Below, piece by piece: positions 1,350-24,211 of a stretch of DNA of 25,158 bases. Numbering within the stretch: the stretch's first letter is position 1; each line of letters opens with the position of its first letter. The translations under genes were made by a program, and so were the position numbers. The stretch comes from a virus (lineage: Duplodnaviria > Heunggongvirae > Uroviricota > Caudoviricetes): the IMG/VR virus record IMGVR_UViG_2671180680_000002, one strand, 5' to 3'. A model generated the notes under the pieces. The model worked only from the letters and a program-made list of their open reading frames with translations, searched no databases and was not told the origin of the DNA.

Positions 1350-4300
1350 TATGCGAGCCTCACAATATAGTTAAATGCGATGTTTTTGACGGTGTTTTCC
1401 GCGTTACCAGCAGCGTTAACGGTGATGGTGTGTCCATGTGAACCAATCGCAACAGAGTGCGTATGAGCACCAATACCGACAGTATGCGCGTGTGCACCCG
1501 CAGATGCTGCTGTGCCGGACAGTGAGTGTGTATGGTTTCCTTCTGAAGATGATTTACCTACCCATTGGGAGGTGCCACTGGTTAATGAGCCACTGATACC
1601 AACCTGATTAGTCCCGCTAACTTGAGTACTCCCTGCCGGAAACATTCCAGTAGGTTGACTCCCGCTATTCGTTCTGGGCCCAGTCTGACTATGTTGGTGG
1701 GCCCCAGCTGAACTTGTAGAGCCGCTCAGACTGTGCGTATGCGCCCCGGTGTTATTCGTGGATTTAGTGCCGTAATCAAACGACGATGTGGTTTTCGTCC
1801 CCAAATCCGTACTGGATGCGCTGGCGCTGTGGGTGTGCGATTTAATGCCATCCTGTTCCTGAGACAATACGGCACGACCACTGGCGGGCTTGCCCTTAAT
1901 CGTCCAGCCACGCATATCAGGGATCACGCCTGACGGATAAGCGGCTGCAAGTTTCGGGTAAGCAGATTTGTCAAAAGTCTGCCCCTGCATCAGGGCATAA
2001 CCAGACGGAACGGTATCTGATGGCCACGGGATTGGTGCACCGACTGGATAAAACTCTGCAGGAGGATGAGCCGAGGTGTAAAGCTGCGCCCACGGCGACC
2101 AGTTTGCGTCGGTCGTATCCCGTCGTGAACGAATAAATGCCGGAGCATGAGCACCGCTTGTACCACTCCAGCCGATGAGTAACTCACCTTCGCCAACGGC
2201 TGTCATCCCTTTCAGGTGAATGATATTTCCATACGCTGTTGGATATCCGTTGTTATACACCTCGTATAACTCAAGACCTGCTGCCCCCTGCGTATTGTCT
2301 GTCAGCGCGGCTACCCGACCTTTTGAAGCCAGATTAACTGATGATACTGCTGTTCCACCTGACGGTAGCGCCCCGATCTCTGATGCCGTTGGCTTATTTC
2401 TGGAGTTATAGTCCCTTCGCCAGCCAGGTGAATAATCTGTTCCGTGATTAATATAGGTAAACTGGGCGTTGGTTGTTCCGCCACCGCTGGATGTGGTCGG
2501 AGTGGTAATGCGGATCGTCATCGCTGACTTTATCCCCATTACTTCAATGACAGCTCCGGCGAGATGAATATTACCGCAGCCAGTATCAGTAATGATTTTA
2601 TTATTGCCATAAGACCAGGAACCCTTGCACATCCAGTATGGATGGTTAAATGCTCCCTGAGAATCCAGCCACTCGATAAACTGTGCAGTCGTCCAGTTTC
2701 CTGTTGTTGTGCTTACTGACCCACCGAAGGCACGGCAGGCACCAATATTTTTCGTAAAGGTGTCTTTGCCAGGGATATCCGCACCGTTCTGATCTTTCTG
2801 CAGACGTTTCTCAGCATTGTCATTGGCTGCTTTTACTGCCTTTGGCGTTGCCGCCAGCGTTTCAGACGTGCTGTTGGTCGCGCTGCTTAGCTGGATTATC
2901 CCTTTCTGTGCTGTCGTTGCATCCTGTGCGGTGTATTTCCCGTTAGCCAGGTCATACGCGGCCTTAACGGCTTTTGGTGTTGCCGCCAGTGACTCGGAAG
3001 TGCTGTTAGTCGCACTACTGAGCTGTACTATCCCCTTTTTCGTCGTGCTCGCATCCTCAAGCGCCACGGCGGATGCAATATCCTCTGCCCGTTTTGCCGC
3101 TGTCTCAGCGCGCGTTGCTGCAGATTCCGCCGTACTTTTGCTCTGAGCTGCTGCCGTCGCACTACCAGCAGCCTCTGTCGCCTTCGTGGATGCCGTCGTG
3201 GCGCTGCCCTTCGCTGCTGACGCCTGTCTGGTCGCCTCATCTTTTGAAGCAGACGCCGATGATGCCGATGACGCCGCCGAACTGGCGGACGATGCGGCAG
3301 CCGTTTTTGAGGATTCTGCACGGGTTTCCGACGCTTTCGCGTTCGTTTCGGATGTCTTCGCTGCGGAAGCTGACCTCGCTGCTGCCGTGGCCTGCTCAGT
3401 GGCTTCGCCAGCCTTCGTTGTGGCTGTTGAAGCGGATGATGCGGCGCTTTCTGCCGATTTTCCGGCGGCGGTGGCACTGGCTGAGGCCTGCCCGGCACTT
3501 GTTGACGCGGCGCTGGCAGACGACGCAGCCGCTGTTTTTGAGCCTGCCGCAGCTGAGGCACTCTGTCCCGCTGCCGTTTCAGAAGACCTGGCGTTCGTCT
3601 CGGACGTTTTGGCCGCCTTCGCAGAATTTGCAGCCGCCGTCGCCGAGGAAGCTGNNNNNNNNNNNNNNNNNNNNNNNNNNNNNNNNNNNNNNNNNNNNNN
3701 NNNNNNNNNNNNNNNNNNNNNNNNNNNNNNNNNNNNNNNNNNNNNNNNNNNNNNNNNNNNNNNNNNNNNNNNNNNNNNNNNNNNNNNNNNNNNNNNNNNN
3801 NNNNNNNNNNNNNNNNNNNNNNNNNNNNNNNNNNNNNNNNNNNNNNNNNNNNNNNNNNNNNNNNNNNNNNNNNNNNNNNNNNNNNNNNNNNNNNNNNNNN
3901 NNNNNNNNNNNNNNNNNNNNNNNNNNNNNNNNNNNNNNNNNNNNNNNNNATGCCGTTCCTGCGCTGGAAGACGCTGACTGAGCCGACGAAGCGGCCTGTC
4001 CGGCTGACGTGCTGGCTGCACGTGCTGAATCTGCAGCATCAGTCGCATGGGTTGCCGCCTCACGGGCTGATGTGCTGGCATCGCTGGCTGATTTCTTCGC
4101 GGCTGCCGTGTTCTGTGCCACCGCGGACGCGTTACGCGCCACCTCTTCCACCATCAGCTCAAAACGGCGCAGTGCCTCCGGACGGGCATCATCCTCCGTC
4201 ATGGCACCGAGAAAATCATTCAGCGTACCGGGTCGGGAATCTTCATACACGGTGATGGTCCCGGCATGTGACGGCGGGAATCCTTCCACCAACAGAATAA

Positions 4301-11033: not shown

Positions 11034-13556
11034 CGTCCACCTCCGGAGAACAGGCCACCATCACGCATCTGTGTCTGAATTTCATCACGGGCACCCTTGC
11101 GGGCCATGTCATACACGGCCTTCATCATCTGTGGACCTGGCAGACCATTCGTACCGTCGTTCTGAATCACCACGTGATTGTTCTGATTAAAATTAATGCC
11201 TTCAGCCCGCCGCATCTGCGCCGGACTTCCGGCACCGCCCACATAACCACCTTCCGCATAGCCGCGCATCAGCCGGTAGAGATTCCCCACGCCAATCCGG
11301 CTGGTTGCCTCCTTCGTGAAGACAAATTCACCACGNNNNNNNNNNNNNNNNNNNNNNNNNNNNNNNNNNNNNNNNNNNNNNNNNNNNNNNNNNNNNNNNN
11401 NNNNNNNNNNNNNNNNNNNNNNNNNNNNNNNNNNNNNNNNNNNNNNNNNNNNNNNNNNNNNNNNNNNNNNNNNNNNNNNNNNNNNNNNNNNNNNNNNNNN
11501 NNNNNNNNNNNNNNNNNNNNNNNNNNNNNNNNNNNNNNNNNNNNNNNNNNNNNNNNNNNNNNNNNNNNNNNNNNNNNNNNNNNNNNNNNNNNNNNNNNNT
11601 TTTAACCTGTGACATACTGTCCGTGGCGCTCTCTTCCCACTCACTCCAGCCGGACTTCAGGCCTGCCATCCAGCTCCCGCGAAGCTGGTCTTCAGCCGCC
11701 CAGGTCTTTTTCTGCTCTGACATGACGTTATTCAGCGCCAGAGGATTATCGCCATACTGTTCCTTCAGGCGCTGTTCCGTGGCTTCCCGCGCTGCCTGCC
11801 GGTCAGTCAGCCCCCGGTTTTTCGCATCAATGGCTGCCCGTTTTGCCCGTTGCTGCTGTGCGAATTTATCCGCCTGCTGCGCCAGCGCATTCAGGTGCTC
11901 CTGATACGTAACCTTGTCACCAAGTGCAGCCAGCTGGCGTTTGTACTCCAGCGTCTCGTCTTTATGCGCCAGCAGGGATTTCTCCTGTGCGGACAGCTGG
12001 CGACGTTGTGCCGCCTCCTCCAGTACCGCGAACTGACTTTCTGCCTTCCACAAATCCCGGCGCTGCTGGCTGATTTTCTCATTCGCTCCGGCATGCTTCT
12101 CCAGCGTCCGGAGTTCTGCCTGAAGCGTCAGCAGGGCCGCATGAGCACTGTCTTCCTGACGATCGCCCGCATACACCTTCACGCCGGACTGTTTCGGCTT
12201 TTTCAGCGTCGCTTCATAATCCTTTTTCGCCGCCGCCATCAGCGTGTTGTAATCTGCCTGCAGGATTTTTCCGTCTTTCAGTGCCTTGTTCAGTTCTTCC
12301 TGACGGGCGGTATATTTCTCCAGCGGCGTCTGCAGCCGTTCGTAAGCCTTCTGCGCCTCTTCGGTATATTTCAGCCGTGACGCTTCGGTATCGCTCTGCT
12401 GCTGCGCATTTTTGTCCTGTTGACGCTGTTGATCTACCCTCTTTTGGGCTGCATCCCGCTCCAGGCGTTTTTTTTCACGATCATCCCAGTAACGCGCCCG
12501 TGCTTCATCGTTAACGAAATAATCATCCTTGCGCAGATTCCAGATGTCGTCTGCTTTCTTAAACGCAGCCTCTGCCTTAATCAGCATCTCCTGCGCGGTA
12601 TCAGGACGACCAATATCCAGCACCGCATCCCACATGGATTTGAATGCACGTGCAGTCCTGTCTGCCCAGGTCTCCAGCGTGCCCATGTTCTCTTTCAGGC
12701 GGCGGGTCTGGTCATCAAACCCTTTCGTTGCGGCCTCGTTCGCCGCCTGCAATGCCCCGGCTTCATCGCCGGAACGCTGCAACTGAGCAACATACGCAAT
12801 CTGCTCCGCCGTCACGTTATGGAACTGGCGTGCCATCGCCGTCAGCCCCGACGTCGGGTCTGTGGTCAGCTTCCCGAAGGCTTCAGCGACCTTGTCCACC
12901 TCCACGCCGGATGCATAGGAGAAACGCGCCACACTCTGGCTGATGGACGCAATCTGAGCCTCACCGCTTACCCCCGCCTTAACCAGTGCGCTGAGTGACT
13001 CGCTGGTCTGGTTAAACGTCAGCCCTGCCGCCTGCCCGGCTCTGGACAGGACCAGCATACGATCTGCCGTCAGTCCCGCCTGATTACCGGAAAGGACCAG
13101 CGTTTTGTTGAAATCGGACAGGGTTGAGTTGCCCTGATACCAGGCATACGCCAGCGCACCGGTCGCCACCGCCAGCGAGGTGGCCCCCACCATCGGCAGG
13201 GTGATCGCGCCGGCAAGCCCCCTGAACATGGGGATCATCCCGCCGAAGGAGTCCTTAACCTGACCACCCTGTTGCAGCAGGATCAGCCAGGGATTCTGCC
13301 CCCCTGCAAGCTGCGTGGCCACGTCGGTGAACTGTGCAGGCAGCATACGCATGGCGGCTTTATACTGCCCGACGGAAATCCCCGCTTTCTGTGCAGCCAG
13401 CGCCTGTCGGCTCAGCGACTGTTCAACGACTGCCGCTGTTTTTTTCGCATCACTTTCCGTACCGGAAAAATGACGCCTGACTCTGGCCATCTGCTCGTCA
13501 AATCTGGCCGCATCCAGACTCAAATCAACGACCAGATCGCCTACCGGTTCAGCCAT
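11030..13556 (-). CDS. H: tail tape measure protein H (interrupted by N-run 11336-11599)
   Basis: N-terminus MAEPVGDLVVDLSLDAARFDEQMARVRRHF, coiled-coil-rich centre, C-terminus ...ARKGARDEIQTQMRDGGLFSGGGR, all lambda gpH-like. The two flanks of the N-run are in different frames, which I treat as a gap artefact. 8-nt overlap with T and 4-nt overlap with M as in lambda. Confidence 0.9.
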
Positions 13557-15546: not shown

Positions 15547-16088
15547 CGCTTTATTACCATTCTCAGTTGATGCTGCAGCGCATAGCCCAGCTCTTTCGGA
15601 AGACGTTCACGCCGTATCCGTTCAATATTCTGTTTAAACGCCGTGGTCAGCGGCACCGCCATCGGGATTTTCACCACATCAATGGGGTAACGGTTTTTCC
15701 CGGCCACACGCTGCATAACATGCCACCGGCCGTTTTTCAGTTGCTGANNNNNNNNNNNNNNNNNNNNNNNNNNNNNNNNNNNNNNNNNNNNNNNNNNNNN
15801 NNNNNNNNNNNNNNNNNNNNNNNNNNNNNNNNNNNNNNNNNNNNNNNNNNNNNNNNNNNNNNNNNNNNNNNNNNNNNNNNNNNNNNNNNNNNNNNNNNNN
15901 NNNNNNNNNNNNNNNNNNNNNNNNNNNNNNNNNNNNNNNNNNNNNNNNNNNNNNNNNNNNNNNNNNNNNNNNNNNNNTATCGCGGATGAAGCAACGCGGT
16001 TAATGGCCATTGCGGCGGCACCGGGCACCGCCGTTTTGCTGATACGGCTGAGGTTTTCAACGGCCTGCTCAAGACCTTTTATGGCCAT
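15543..16088 (-). CDS. Z: tail completion protein Z (interrupted by N-run 15748-15977)
   Basis: N-terminus MAIKGLEQAVENLSRISKTAVPGAAAMAINRVASSAI and C-terminus ...[16 protein letters not shown] match lambda gpZ. 546 nt here against 579 nt in lambda, so the N-run is not true length. Confidence 0.88.
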   Translation of the reverse strand: MAIKGLEQAVENLSRISKTAVPGAAAMAINRVASSAIXXXXXXXXXXXXXXXXXXXXXXXXXXXXXXXXXXXXXXXXXXXXXXXXXXXXXXXXXXXXXXXXXXXXXXXXXXXXXQQLKNGRWHVMQRVAGKNRYPIDVVKIPMAVPLTTAFKQNIERIRRERLPKELGYALQHQLRMVIKR

Positions 16089-17985: not shown

Positions 17986-18318
17986 TTAAACGATGCTGAT
18001 TGCCGTTCCGGCAAACACGGTCCGTTTTTTCGTCTCGTCGCTGGCAGCCTCCGGCCAGAGCACATCCTCATAACGGAACGTGCCGGACTTGTAGAACGTC
18101 AGTGTGGTGCTGGTCTGGTCAGCAGCAACCGCAAGAATGCCAACGGCAGCACCGTCGGTGGTGCCATCCCACGCAACCAGCTTACGGGTGGAGGTGTCCA
18201 GCATCAGCGGGGTCATTGCAGGCGCTTTCGCACTCAATCCGCCGGGCGCGGTTGCGGTATGAGCCGGGTCACTATTGCCCAGCGGCTGGTAATGGGTAAA
18301 GGTTTCTTTGCTCGTCAT
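17986..18318 (-). CDS. D: head decoration protein D
   Basis: ATG at 18318 gives [43 protein letters not shown]... ending TAISIV. 333 nt as in lambda D. Confidence 0.93.
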
Positions 18319-18327
18319 AAACATCCC

Positions 18328-18933
18328 TTACACTGGTGTGTTCAGCAAATCGTTAACGGCATCAGATGCCGGGTTACCTGCAGCCAGCGGTGCCGGTGCC
18401 CCCTGCATCAGACGATCCAGCGCAGTGTCACTGCGCGTCTGTGCACTCTGTGGTGCTGCGGCCAGAATACGGCGGGCCGTTTCCACGGTCATACCGGGGG
18501 TTTCGGCCAGCACGCGTGCCTGTTCTTCGCGTCCGTGAGCCTCCTCACAGTTGAGGATCCCCATAATGCGACTGTTTTCTGCCGCAACCGCTGCGGTGAT
18601 CTGCGCGTTCACGTCCGGCTGCGCCGCGCTGGCGTTCTCGCCCTCCGTCGCTTGCACCACGCCAGTAACGTCAGCCTGCGAAGCAGTGGCTGAAACAGTT
18701 GTTGATTGAGTCTCTTTGGTCATTCGCCCTCCTGAGAGACGGGATTTACGTGCATCCAGTGCATCACGCATGACGGTGATCGCATCGGTACTGTTAACAA
18801 GTTCATCAGCCAGTCCGGCATCAATGGCCTCCTGACCGCTGTACACTGCAGCCTCGGTATCCAGCACAGCCTGCACGGACAGGCCGGTATATGCCGACAC
18901 CTTCTGTGCAAACATCCGGCGGGTTGCATCCAT
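18328..18933 (-). CDS. Nu3: scaffolding protein Nu3 (in-frame internal start within C)
   Basis: In-frame ATG at 18933 gives MDATRRMFAQKVSAYTGLSVQ... (201 aa), co-terminal with C. 606 nt as in lambda Nu3. Confidence 0.7.
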   Translation of the reverse strand: MDATRRMFAQKVSAYTGLSVQAVLDTEAAVYSGQEAIDAGLADELVNSTDAITVMRDALDARKSRLSGGRMTKETQSTTVSATASQADVTGVVQATEGENASAAQPDVNAQITAAVAAENSRIMGILNCEEAHGREEQARVLAETPGMTVETARRILAAAPQSAQTRSDTALDRLMQGAPAPLAAGNPASDAVNDLLNTPV

Positions 18934-19353
18934 CCGGGACTGCAATGTTTCCCGGACATCATCCGGTAGATGGCTGTAGGGGTTGCCATCCACCTTATGG
19001 CTGCCGCTGTAAATCAGCGTGATTTCCACGCCCTGTTTCTCCAGTGCAGCGCCGTAATTACTGTGAGCCATCATGACGCCGATGGAGCCTGTCCGGGCGG
19101 TCTGCGTGACCAGACGCCGGGAGGCGGCACTGGCAAGCAGCTGACCTGCGCTGCAGTTCATGTCATTGGCCAGCGCCCATACCGGCTTTATGTCACGCAC
19201 ACGGGCGATGATGTCAGCGCAGTCAAATGCTCCCGCCACCATTCCGCCCGGTGGCGTCCGGCTGACCAGCGTGCCGGACACCGGCAGCACGGCGATGCCG
19301 TTCATTACCTGATAACTGCGGGCCTGTCGTGGTCCGTCATCATCACCGGATAA
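18328..19353 (-). CDS. C: prohead protease/scaffold C (5' end lost in N-run 19354-19630)
   Basis: Visible part LSGDDDGPRQARSYQVMNGIAVLPVSGTLVSR...GMVAGAFDCADIIARVRDIKPVWALANDMNCSAGQLLASAASRRL... is lambda gpC-like. Ends 9 nt before D as in lambda. Confidence 0.85.
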   Translation of the reverse strand, partial: LSGDDDGPRQARSYQVMNGIAVLPVSGTLVSRTPPGGMVAGAFDCADIIARVRDIKPVWALANDMNCSAGQLLASAASRRLVTQTARTGSIGVMMAHSNYGAALEKQGVEITLIYSGSHKVDGNPYSHLPDDVRETLQSRMDATRRMFAQKVSAYTGLSVQAVLDTEAAVYSGQEAIDAGLADELVNSTDAITVMRDALDARKSRLSGGRMTKETQSTTVSATASQADVTGVVQATEGENASAAQPDVNAQITAAVAAENSRIMGILNCEEAHGREEQARVLAETPGMTVETARRILAAAPQSAQTRSDTALDRLMQGAPAPLAAGNPASDAVNDLLNTPV

Positions 19354-19630
19354 NNNNNNNNNNNNNNNNNNNNNNNNNNNNNNNNNNNNNNNNNNNNNNN
19401 NNNNNNNNNNNNNNNNNNNNNNNNNNNNNNNNNNNNNNNNNNNNNNNNNNNNNNNNNNNNNNNNNNNNNNNNNNNNNNNNNNNNNNNNNNNNNNNNNNNN
19501 NNNNNNNNNNNNNNNNNNNNNNNNNNNNNNNNNNNNNNNNNNNNNNNNNNNNNNNNNNNNNNNNNNNNNNNNNNNNNNNNNNNNNNNNNNNNNNNNNNNN
19601 NNNNNNNNNNNNNNNNNNNNNNNNNNNNNN

Positions 19631-20939
19631 TTAAGACCAGCTGCGCGGCGCTCCATCGTTTCACGGACCTGCTGGGCAAAAATTTCCTGATAGTCGTCAC
19701 CGCGTTTCGCGCACTCTTTCTCGTAGGTGCTCAGTCCGGCTTCTATCAGCATCACCGCTTCCTGAACTTCTTTCAGACCATCGATGGCCATACGACCGGA
19801 GCCTATCCAGTCGCAGTTCCCCCAGGCACTGCGGGCTTCCTGAAAGCTGAAGCGCGCTTTTGAAGGTAACGTCACCACGCGGCGAACGATGGCCTCTTCC
19901 AGCCAGCACAGAAACATCTGGCTCGCCTGACGGGATGCGACGAATTTTCGCCGCCCCATAAAGTACGCCCACGACTCGTTCGCACTGGCCCGTGCCGTGG
20001 AGTAGCTCATCTGGGCGTAATTCCGGGAAAGTTGCTCATACGAGACACCCAGCCCGGCAGCGATATACCGCAACAGTGACTGCTCAAACACGGAGTAGCC
20101 GTTATCCGTGTCCTGAGCCGTCTGCAGGTTCAGTGAGTCCCCCGGCATCAGGTGCGGCACTTTTGCGCCTCCCAGACGGACCGGTGCTGCGGCGTAATAC
20201 GCGGCAATTTCACCAATCCAGCCCGTCAGCCTTTCCCGCTGCTCCTTACTGTTCGCGCCCAGAATAAAATCCATCGCTGACTGCGTATCCAGCTCACTTT
20301 CAATGGTGGCGGCATACATCGCCTTCACAATGGCGCTCTGCAGCTGCGTGTTCTGCAGCGTGTCGAGCATCTTCATCTGCTCCATTACGCTGTAAAACAC
20401 ATTTGCACCGCGGGTCTGCCCGTCCTCCACGGGTTCAAAAACGTGAATGAACGAGGCGCGCCCGCCGGGTAACTCACGGGGTATCCATGTCCATTTCTGC
20501 GGCATCCAGCCAGGATAGCCGTCCTCGCTGACGTAATATCCCAGCGCCGCACCGCTGTCATTAATCTGCACACCGGCACGGCAGTTCCGGCTGTCGCCGG
20601 TATTGTTCGGGTTGCTGATGCGCTTCGGGCTGACCATCCGGAACTGTGTCCGGAAAAGCCGCGACGAACTGGTATCCCAGGTGGCCTGAACGAACAGTTC
20701 ACCGTTAAAGGCGTGCATGGCCACACCTTCCCGAATCATCATGGTAAACGTGCGTTTTCGCTCAACGTCAATGCAGCAGCAGTCATCCTCGGCAAACTCT
20801 TTCCATGCCGCTTCAACCTCGCGGGAAAAGGCACGGGCGTCTTCCTCCCCGATGCCCAGATAGCGCCAGCTTGGGCGATGACTGAGCCGGAAAAAAGACC
20901 CGACGATATGATCCTGATGCAGCTGGATGGCGTTGGCAG
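19631..20939 (-). CDS. B: portal protein B (both ends lost in N-runs)
   Basis: Continuous frame ...NAIQLHQDHIVGSFFRLSHRPSWRYLGIGEEDARAFSREVEAAWKEFAEDDCCCIDVERKRTFTMMIREGVAMHAF...RETMERRAAGL is lambda gpB-like. The ORF-track start at 20742 is only the first in-frame Met. Confidence 0.88.
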
Positions 20940-21211
20940 NNNNNNNNNNNNNNNNNNNNNNNNNNNNNNNNNNNNNNNNNNNNNNNNNNNNNNNNNNNNN
21001 NNNNNNNNNNNNNNNNNNNNNNNNNNNNNNNNNNNNNNNNNNNNNNNNNNNNNNNNNNNNNNNNNNNNNNNNNNNNNNNNNNNNNNNNNNNNNNNNNNNN
21101 NNNNNNNNNNNNNNNNNNNNNNNNNNNNNNNNNNNNNNNNNNNNNNNNNNNNNNNNNNNNNNNNNNNNNNNNNNNNNNNNNNNNNNNNNNNNNNNNNNNN
21201 NNNNNNNNNNN

Positions 21212-23277
<2,066 letters not shown>

Positions 23278-23303
<26 letters not shown>

Positions 23304-23823
23304 TCAGCAACCCCGGTATCAGTTCATCCAGCGCGGCTGCTTTGTTCATGGCTTTGATGATATCCCGTTTCAGGAAATCAACATGTCGGTTTTCCAGTTC
23401 CGGAAAACGCCGCTGCACCGACAGGGGGATCCCGTCGAGAATACTGGCAATTTCACCTGCGATCCGCGACAGCACGAAAGTACAGAATGCGGTTTCCACC
23501 ACTTCAGCGGAGTCTCTGGCATTTTTCAGCTCCTGTGCGTCGGCCTGCGCACGCGTAAGTCGATGGCGTTCGTACTCAATAGTCCCTGGCTGGAGATCTG
23601 TCTCGCTGGCCTGCCGCAGTTCTTCAACTTCCCGGCGCAGCTTTTCGTTCTCAATTTCAGCATCCCTTTCGGCATACCATCTTATAACGGCGGCAGAGTC
23701 ATAAAGCACCTCATTACCCTTGCCACCGCCTCGCAGAACGGGCATTCCCTGTTCCTGCCAGTTCTGAATGGTACGGATACTCGCACCGAAAATGTCAGCC
23801 AGCTGCTTTTTGTTGACTTCCAT
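23278..23823 (-). CDS. Nu1: terminase small subunit Nu1
   Basis: 181-aa ORF MEVNKKQLADIFGASIRTIQNWQEQGMPVLRGGGKGNEVLYDSAAV... with an N-terminal helix-turn-helix. 546 nt as in lambda Nu1. Confidence 0.93.
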
Positions 23824-23839
23824 TGTTCATTCCACGGAC

Positions 23840-24012
23840 AAAAACAGAGAAAGGAAACGACAGAGGCCAAAAAGCCCGTTTTCAGCACCTGTCGTTTCCT
23901 TTCTTTTCAGGGGGTGTTTTAAATAAAAACATTAGGTTACGGCGAAGAAGAACGGAAACGCCTTAAACCGGAAAATTGTCATAAATAGCGAAAACCCGCG
24001 CGCCTTCCGCCC
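23840..24012. other. cos: cos site: cosB (three Nu1 R-elements) plus cosN cohesive-end 12-mer
   Basis: R-element cores GGAAACG at 23853-23859, CGTTTCC at 23893-23899 and GGAAACG at 23954-23960. Flanks align to the lambda left-end and right-end junction. The 12-mer at 24001-24012 (plus CGCCTTCCGCCC, minus-strand GGGCGGAAGGCG) sits where lambda has GGGCGGCGACCT. Confidence 0.75.
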
Positions 24013-24048
24013 CGTAACCTGTCGGATCGCCGGAAAGGACCCGCAAAA

Positions 24049-24063
24049 TGATAATAATTATCA
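24049..24063. promoter_or_regulatory. perfect 7-1-7 inverted repeat TGATAAT-A-ATTATCA (Fur-box-like palindrome)
   Basis: TGATAATAATTATCA at 24049-24063, about 40 bp from cosN and about 150 bp upstream of the plus-strand ORF at 24212. Confidence 0.3.
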
Positions 24064-24211
24064 TCTACATGTCACAACGTGCATCTACGCCATCAAACCA
24101 CGTCAAATAATCAATTATGACGCAGGTATCGTATTAATTGATCTGCATCAACTTAACGTAAAAACAACTTCAGACAATACAAATCAGCGACACTGAATAC
24201 AGGGCAACCTC

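Follow-up and report, generated by a model that had tools for sequence, protein, structure and literature searches.

The window analyzed here, a 25,158-nucleotide stretch of tailed-phage DNA (IMG/VR record IMGVR_UViG_2671180680_000002), contains adjacent genes for a Nu1-family small terminase subunit (TerS) and a gpA-family large terminase subunit (TerL), together with a predicted lambda-type cos site (Table 1). Nu1 matched Pfam family PF07471 with an E value of 2.4e-101. The unmasked N-terminal two-thirds of gpA matched the gpA ATPase and nuclease families PF05876 (E 4.4e-51) and PF20454 (E 6.4e-24), and a residue comparison showed that the unmasked part of this protein was about 99% identical to lambda gpA. 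Runs of N (3655–3949, 11336–11599, 15748–15977, 19354–19630, 20940–21211 and 21835–22084) hide parts of gpA, B, C and tail genes. These masks do not preserve length, as the offset relative to identical contigs changes by 1, 26 or 30 nt across them; consequently, open reading frames crossing a mask, gpA among them, have the false appearance of a frameshift. A frameshift in gpA was rejected because the mask at 21835–22084 alters the length and because the gene is intact, encoding 641 aa, in L011, an IMG/VR contig that is 100% identical to the window outside the masks.

Table 1. Features of the predicted cos region and terminase genes in the window
Feature	Position in window	Strand	Basis
GGGTCCT heptamer, −30 to −24, identical to lambda	24036..24042	−	Invariant alignment columns
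16-bp cosN core, CG/GGGCGGAAGGCG/CG (12-mer plus both nick-flanking CG dinucleotides)	23999..24014	−	Sequence read
cosN cohesive-end 12-mer, variant GGGCGGAAGGCG, bp 1–12	24001..24012	−	Sequence read and alignment to lambda/DE3
cosB R3, bp 50–65, AGGCGTTTCCGTTCTT, identical to lambda	23948..23963	−	Sequence read and alignment
cosB R2 (bp 109–124, inverted) and R1 (bp 150–165, CTGTCGTTTCCTTTCT)	23848..23904	−	Sequence read, invariant columns
Nu1 (TerS), intact, 181 aa, with about 98% identity to lambda Nu1	23278..23823	−	ORF, Pfam, residue comparison
gpA (TerL)	21377..23303	−	ORF, Pfam PF05876 and PF20454

One further difference from L011 was observed in the minus-strand gene C, which encodes an S49 prohead protease. 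The window is without 108 nt (36 codons, in frame) at 19253/19254 that are present in the otherwise 100% identical L011 and also in L021 and L032. The protein reads ...VSRT/PPGGMVAGAF in the window (the slash marks the gap) versus ...VSRTRALQPYSGMTGYNGIIARLQQAASDPMVDGILLDMDTPGGMVAGAF, and the gap lies 100 nt from the mask at 19354–19630. The gap may reflect a genuine loss of protease-domain sequence or may stem from the construction of the window.

The cos region of the window was aligned with that of six relatives from the phage collection, including DE3/lambda with its annotated cos (EU078592.1). The GGGTCCT heptamer occupies what we take to be the position of lambda cosQ, the packaging termination signal. 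Also lambda-like are the cohesive end's left half (GGGCGG), the CG dinucleotides flanking both nicks, and R3, R2 and R1 together with their spacing. R1 and R2 are exact reverse complements of one another, as in lambda, and both are identical to their lambda counterparts. The ACG preceding the nick, the CG at bp 13–14 and the Nu1 start codon were conserved in the alignment. Moreover, the 30 bp upstream and 22 bp downstream equal lambda/DE3 except at bp −17 (C vs. T), where the base in the window agrees with the other aligned relatives. The window thus has a cosB with R3, an inverted R2 and R1 at lambda spacing, the layout given in PMC9026076. TerS is anchored at R3, which places TerL for nicking of the bottom strand (PMC9026076 and PMC4669245, for the coordinates and this role).

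Direct reading of the minus strand yielded TACGGGGCGGAAGGCGCGCGGG for positions 23995–24016 and AGGTTACG GGGCGGAAGGCG CGCGGGTTTTCGCTATTTAT for 24020–23981. By homology, the top strand would be nicked between 24013 and 24012 and the bottom strand between 24001 and 24000. Relative to the lambda 12-mer, GGGCGGCGACCT, the window carries the substitutions C7A, G8A, A9G, C10G and T12G with C11 unchanged, such that the right half (bp 7–12) is AAGGCG instead of CGACCT. The preliminary description had reported five clustered substitutions relative to the lambda sequence, in a setting of lambda-like flanks, R elements and terminase genes. Its reading of the minus strand was exact, its picture of the surroundings agrees with the identities given above, and the lambda sequence it gave was right, as five of the aligned relatives (DE3/lambda, 2H10, Turner, PhiR49_1 and an Stx1a phage) carry GGGCGGCGACCT. 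Among the aligned sequences the AAGGCG block was present only in the window. Rare single-base variants in the same context were found in PhiR70_1 (GGGCGGAGACCT, C7A; L002/L024) and in the IMG/VR contig L103 (GGGCGGCGACCG, T12G). The 22-mer at 23995–24016 and the 12-mer each occurred once in the window and were absent from shuffled controls. With five of six neighboring bases altered in surroundings that are otherwise nearly identical, the change is clearly non-random.

The block also changes the symmetry of the site. Twofold symmetry of the 16-bp core is 8/16 in the variant compared to 10/16 in lambda, the symmetric G3:C10 pair is lost, and bp 12, which adjoins the nick, is altered. In addition, the substitutions create a GCGCGCG run across the nick (GGCG/CGCGGG) with several CG steps. 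With differences at 5 of 12 positions, the window falls outside the group of sites that share the canonical, mutually annealable 12-nt overhang; as its changes lie within bp 7–12 while bp 1–6 and the flanks are unaltered, it is classified as a right-half variant.

Right-half variation has precedents. Natural cosN variation clusters at bp 7–12, with changes at positions 9 and 12 in N15 and phiD326 and at 8, 9 and 11 in Gifsy-1 (PMC4669245). The statement in the preliminary description that a block substitution would be unexpected here was therefore too strong (Feiss et al. 2015, PMC4669245). The same study found cosN to be functionally asymmetric, in that mutations at bp 7–12 had minimal effects whereas symmetric changes in the left half were severe; for example, G2C cut the yield about 10-fold and the symmetric C11G was without effect. 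Lambda terminase was reported to be largely insensitive to right-half changes, its R3-anchored TerL nicking such sites efficiently. This asymmetry depends on the proximity of cosB, and spacing studies indicate that R3-bound TerS positions TerL (PMC4669245), in agreement with the model of the nicking complex in PMC9026076. High conservation was noted for the nick-flanking CG dinucleotides (PMC4669245). Terminase from lambda and that from lambda-N15hy4, both of which contain lambda TerL, gave equal yields on cosN-lambda and cosN-N15, i.e. there was no cosN specificity, and a 2-bp end mismatch lowered the viable yield about four-fold (PMC4669245). The cosN of mEp213/LLS was reported as GGGCGGCGCGCT (PMC12315714), and that paper points to a dedicated survey by Vahanian et al. 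2017. In the searchable literature the exact 12-mer GGGCGGAAGGCG gave one chance match only, in a Ginkgo paper; Vahanian et al. 2017 may list it. Tolerance of natural right-half cosN variation by lambda-like terminases is already established, and GGGCGGAAGGCG itself is without a description in the searchable literature.

Comparison with these systems places the site in the window closest to lambda in everything except the right half. Heptamer, ACG/GGGCGG, flanking CG and an R3-I1-R2-R1 cosB at equal spacing are shared with lambda, as are Nu1 and gpA at 98–99% identity, and the cohesive ends have 7 of 12 bases in common, six of them contiguous, with bp 7, 8, 9, 10 and 12 differing. N15 and phiD326 likewise have natural right-half changes that include bp 12, although two rather than five relative to lambda. 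N15 TerL is only 64.9% identical to that of lambda and its cosB consists of a single R site, whereas carriers of the variant have a lambda-type gpA and a three-R cosB. Gifsy-1 of Salmonella and mEp213/LLS are also natural right-half variants in lambda-like packaging modules; however, their substitutions are other and fewer than those in the window, and Gifsy-1 alters bp 11, which the window keeps.

As all of the elements reported to be sequence-critical are intact and the changes are confined to bp 7–12, we consider it very probable that the GGGCGGAAGGCG site is a functional, naturally circulating lambda-type cosN allele that is cut at the positions homologous to those in lambda. In the proposed mechanism, the Nu1 subunit of a terminase indistinguishable from that of lambda would bind cosB at R3 and set one gpA endonuclease center at a fixed distance, from where its nick in the bottom strand would fall between bp 12 and 13 with little dependence on the local sequence. 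Another gpA would recognize the conserved left half, ACG/GGGCGG, and nick the top strand. The product would be virion DNA with the 12-nt 5' overhang GGGCGGAAGGCG instead of GGGCGGCGACCT, and a filled-in right end would stop at ...TTACGGGGCGGAAGGCG. An injected chromosome with two variant ends would still cyclize, since the GC content of the overhangs is equal (10/12 in both) and their annealing energies are nearly equal, with computed sticky-end ΔG37 values of −17.8 kcal/mol for the variant and −18.2 kcal/mol for lambda. The ends of the two alleles have in common only the six bases of the left half and C11. Variant and canonical ends would probably not anneal productively, and a chromosome with mixed ends would then not cyclize. 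The published tolerance data (PMC4669245) come from sites with one or two changes and from N15, with its 2-bp difference; five simultaneous changes are presumably tolerated as well as these, with the nick positions kept.

A functional site could instead be one in which the bottom-strand nick is shifted, so that the overhang would not have the length or the register of the homologous 12 nt. The GCGCGCG run offers several CG steps at which this might happen, and the nuclease is not highly sequence-specific, judging from the greatly reduced and inaccurate nicking that follows deletion of cosB (PMC9026076). However, the R3-to-cosN spacing is unaltered, and later papers, citing Higgins and Becker 1994, report that the distance from R3 (47 ± 2 bp) sets the nick position. 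The CG at bp 13–14 is kept as well. We regard a shifted nick as improbable.

The distribution of the variant was examined in several collections. In IMG/VR, an exact 29-mer spanning the block was found in 14 viral contigs and the 18-mer core in 86; a 25-mer was found in 31 metagenome contigs, mostly from human gut. Of 5,426 complete E. coli genomes, 155 contained matches to a variant-specific 40-mer, with 166 sites in total, compared to 7,469 sites in 4,128 genomes for the canonical 40-mer under the same criteria. The two counts are comparable because the variant 40-mer seeds only on the variant block, and they put the variant at about 2.2% of the lambda-type cos sites in E. coli. The variant 40-mer was also present in 23 PLSDB plasmids, including ones from E. 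fergusonii, E. albertii and Shigella sonnei, and in two phage records, YDC107_1 and PhiR46_1. Among species-representative genomes the variant was found in Escherichia sp. E1V33. An unbiased IMG/VR sample in which bp 7–12 were left free gave 116 canonical sites, 3 variant sites and 1 CGACCG (T12G) site among the matches listed, and the IMG/VR allele frequencies are sample values in this sense. No phage record among those searched starts with the variant 12-mer, and contig ends did not coincide with the nick positions in any of the 31 metagenome and 86 viral contigs. We conclude that GGGCGGAAGGCG, as a predicted cosN allele, is the second commonest of the lambda type in Escherichia and the most divergent found in this analysis. 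The preliminary description had named commonness of this 12-mer among lambda-family cos sites as a finding that would speak against its interpretation; the rank of the allele agrees with such commonness, whereas its share of only about 2% does not.

These records also bear on the question of whether the block could have arisen through sequencing, assembly, construction of the window or engineering. The length-altering masks and the 108-nt gap near one of them might raise such a suspicion. However, the identical 12-mer occurs in public assemblies that were produced independently by many laboratories and come from many hosts and countries, and the 100% identity of L011 outside the masks indicates that the block is not a product of window preparation. 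The chance of an artefact or an engineered change is practically negligible.

The variant is found in diverse genetic contexts. Eight flank haplotypes over −120 to +200 were distinguished among 16 alignable variant loci, and more than 20 different sequences occupy the 12 bp to the left of ACG across all variant loci. Three types of small terminase, all belonging to Pfam Phage_Nu1, lie downstream of the variant. About 56 loci have the lambda Nu1 type. About 15 loci have a second type that is 67% identical to Nu1 and whose partner gpA is 97% identical to that of lambda; we take this type to resemble phage 21 gp1. At 4 loci there is a third type, in which the N-terminal region is divergent and the cosB unrelated. 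A single clonal prophage as the source of the variant was rejected on the grounds of the 8 haplotypes in 16 loci, the more than 20 left-flank contexts and the three TerS classes. In lambda-type loci the cosB-side haplotype C71, C97, G137 is strongly linked to the variant, and it is also found with canonical cosN, e.g. in Stx1a phages.

The variant is enriched on N15-like phage-plasmids, where both alleles are about equally common. Of the 166 variant sites in E. coli, 16 lay on replicons annotated as plasmids, compared to 19 of 7,469 for the canonical allele (odds ratio 42, p = 3e-18), and most variant plasmid replicons among the matches listed were 45–47 kb. Full inspection of one replicon, pEC21Z151-46K, identified it as a linear plasmid prophage of the N15-like kind, with genes for protelomerase, RepA and SopAB and a complete lambda-like lysis, head and tail module. 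PhiR46_1 (L033/L154) is of the same type, with telL annotated. It is a deposited phage genome that carries the variant, and its GenBank host field, which names ECOR13, suggests that it may be viable. We assume that the PhiR phages come from Brenes and Laub 2025. N15-like linear plasmid prophages such as L032 (NZ_CP101200.1, 46,173 bp) were observed to carry lambda-type Nu1 and gpA and not an N15-type terminase.

The preliminary description had offered two readings of the block: cosN could have varied naturally to give another sticky end, or the prophage could have lost the ability to have its cos nicked. The first is upheld by the occurrence of the same block in more than 250 records and many backgrounds, and the sticky end would indeed be different. 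According to the second, the element would be a decaying prophage in which the block abolishes bottom-strand nicking and packaging no longer takes place. Five of the six right-half bases are changed, including bp 12 beside the nick, with the accompanying fall in symmetry, and some of the carriers are defective: the capsid gene of L021 is interrupted, the morphogenetic region of L029 is truncated, and the window is without 36 prohead protease codons that L011 has. However, decay would be expected to diverge by lineage, yet the 12-mer is unchanged base for base in these more than 250 records from several species and many backgrounds. Intact terminase genes adjoin the variant, it is enriched in complete N15-like phage-plasmids, right-half changes are reported to be tolerated (PMC4669245), and defective carriers are equally common among prophages with a canonical cos (e.g. 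L030). A cos that can no longer be nicked is thus very unlikely.

The two terminase subunits were compared between variant and canonical loci. In a first set of 11 variant and 5 canonical loci, every variant locus long enough to judge encoded a 181-aa Nu1 and a 641-aa gpA, and no residue of either protein separated the alleles. A later set comprised complete 641-aa gpA open reading frames from 56 variant and 36 canonical loci, and no gpA position was fixed between them. The strongest association, N9D (46% of variant vs. 3% of canonical genes), was rejected as an allele-specific adaptation, as it reflects a linked haplotype or polymorphism. Six gpA protein sequences were identical across variant and canonical loci, indicating that the same enzyme is encoded beside both kinds of cosN. 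As no difference was fixed in either comparison set, co-variation of the terminase with the cosN allele was rejected.

The right halves of Escherichia lambda-type sites fall into essentially two alleles; CGACCT makes up about 98% and AAGGCG about 2%, the others (CGACCG, AGACCT and CTGACG) being singletons. Both main alleles are common to several TerS specificity classes. Intermediates between them, as expected of a stepwise origin, were sought among the matches listed in the IMG/VR sample and in an IMG/VR scan that excluded both main alleles; none was found, the scan returning one contig with CTGACG, and a stepwise origin was rejected. A 6-bp inversion was also rejected since the reverse complement, CGCCTT, differs from the lambda CGACCT at two positions. 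The AAGGCG at bp 7–12 (24001–24006) recurs as the hexamer at bp 49–54 (23959–23964), on the upstream edge of R3 (TTTAAGGCGTTTCC). An origin templated from this copy was discarded, as the flanks lack microhomology and about 0.1 such matches are expected by chance; the match is probably a coincidence.

Two alleles without intermediates sit awkwardly with the notion that bp 7–12 are not under selection, and compatibility of ends could account for the pattern. Cohesive ends would then act as compatibility groups in which the right half does not drift freely and rare or intermediate ends are selected against. Recombinant or mixed concatemers would give mismatched ends, which would disfavor such ends, and a distinct end would insulate phage-plasmids from annealing with co-induced integrated lambdoid prophages. 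This idea is tentative and we consider it rather unlikely.

The GGGCGGAAGGCG allele reveals no new mechanism. It is an extreme natural case of cosN asymmetry, with five of six right-half bases replaced beside a gpA that is sometimes identical to the one at canonical sites, and the two-allele pattern hints at constraint of the right half by end compatibility rather than by terminase recognition. For the prediction of termini, cos-based packaging and cosmid design, and prophage annotation, it matters that about 2% of E. coli lambda-type cos sites carry GGGCGGAAGGCG and that a string search with the canonical 12-mer misses them.

The searches also brought up other cos sites and elements. A third type of cos, found in IMG/VR contigs L095, L177, L219, L225 and L267, has a lambda-like heptamer, cosN and first ~25 bp after the nick, diverges beyond this point (...TATGAGCATTTTAAGG) and encodes a divergent Nu1-family protein (MKLHLMNKKNMAKSCRVSATAFDKWG...; PF07471, E 1e-24). 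No gpA homolog was present within 4 kb in L095, and L267 has yet another cohesive end, GGGCGGCTGACG. In the variant-cos prophage L021 (E. coli APEC E14033 chromosome, 18182–24101), the major capsid gene is truncated and the fragment is directly followed by integrase, HTH regulator, Icd-like protein, DUF4222 and DNA primase genes, which looks like a P4-like or satellite-type element inserted in the capsid gene. Sites identical or nearly identical to lambda cos were detected in assemblies of Raphidiopsis brookii D9 (L161), Aeromicrobium sp. (L162), Archangium violaceum (L163) and an Alicyclobacillus fastidiosus plasmid (L164); for these unrelated, non-enteric assemblies contamination with lambda or cosmid DNA is the likeliest explanation. 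Finally, Sorlinia euscelidii EV16P (L166, 5623–5648) contains TACG GGGCGGTATCTT CGCGGGTTTT between unrelated flanks; this match is due either to chance or to the presence of a distant cosN of the lambda-like kind in this insect symbiont.
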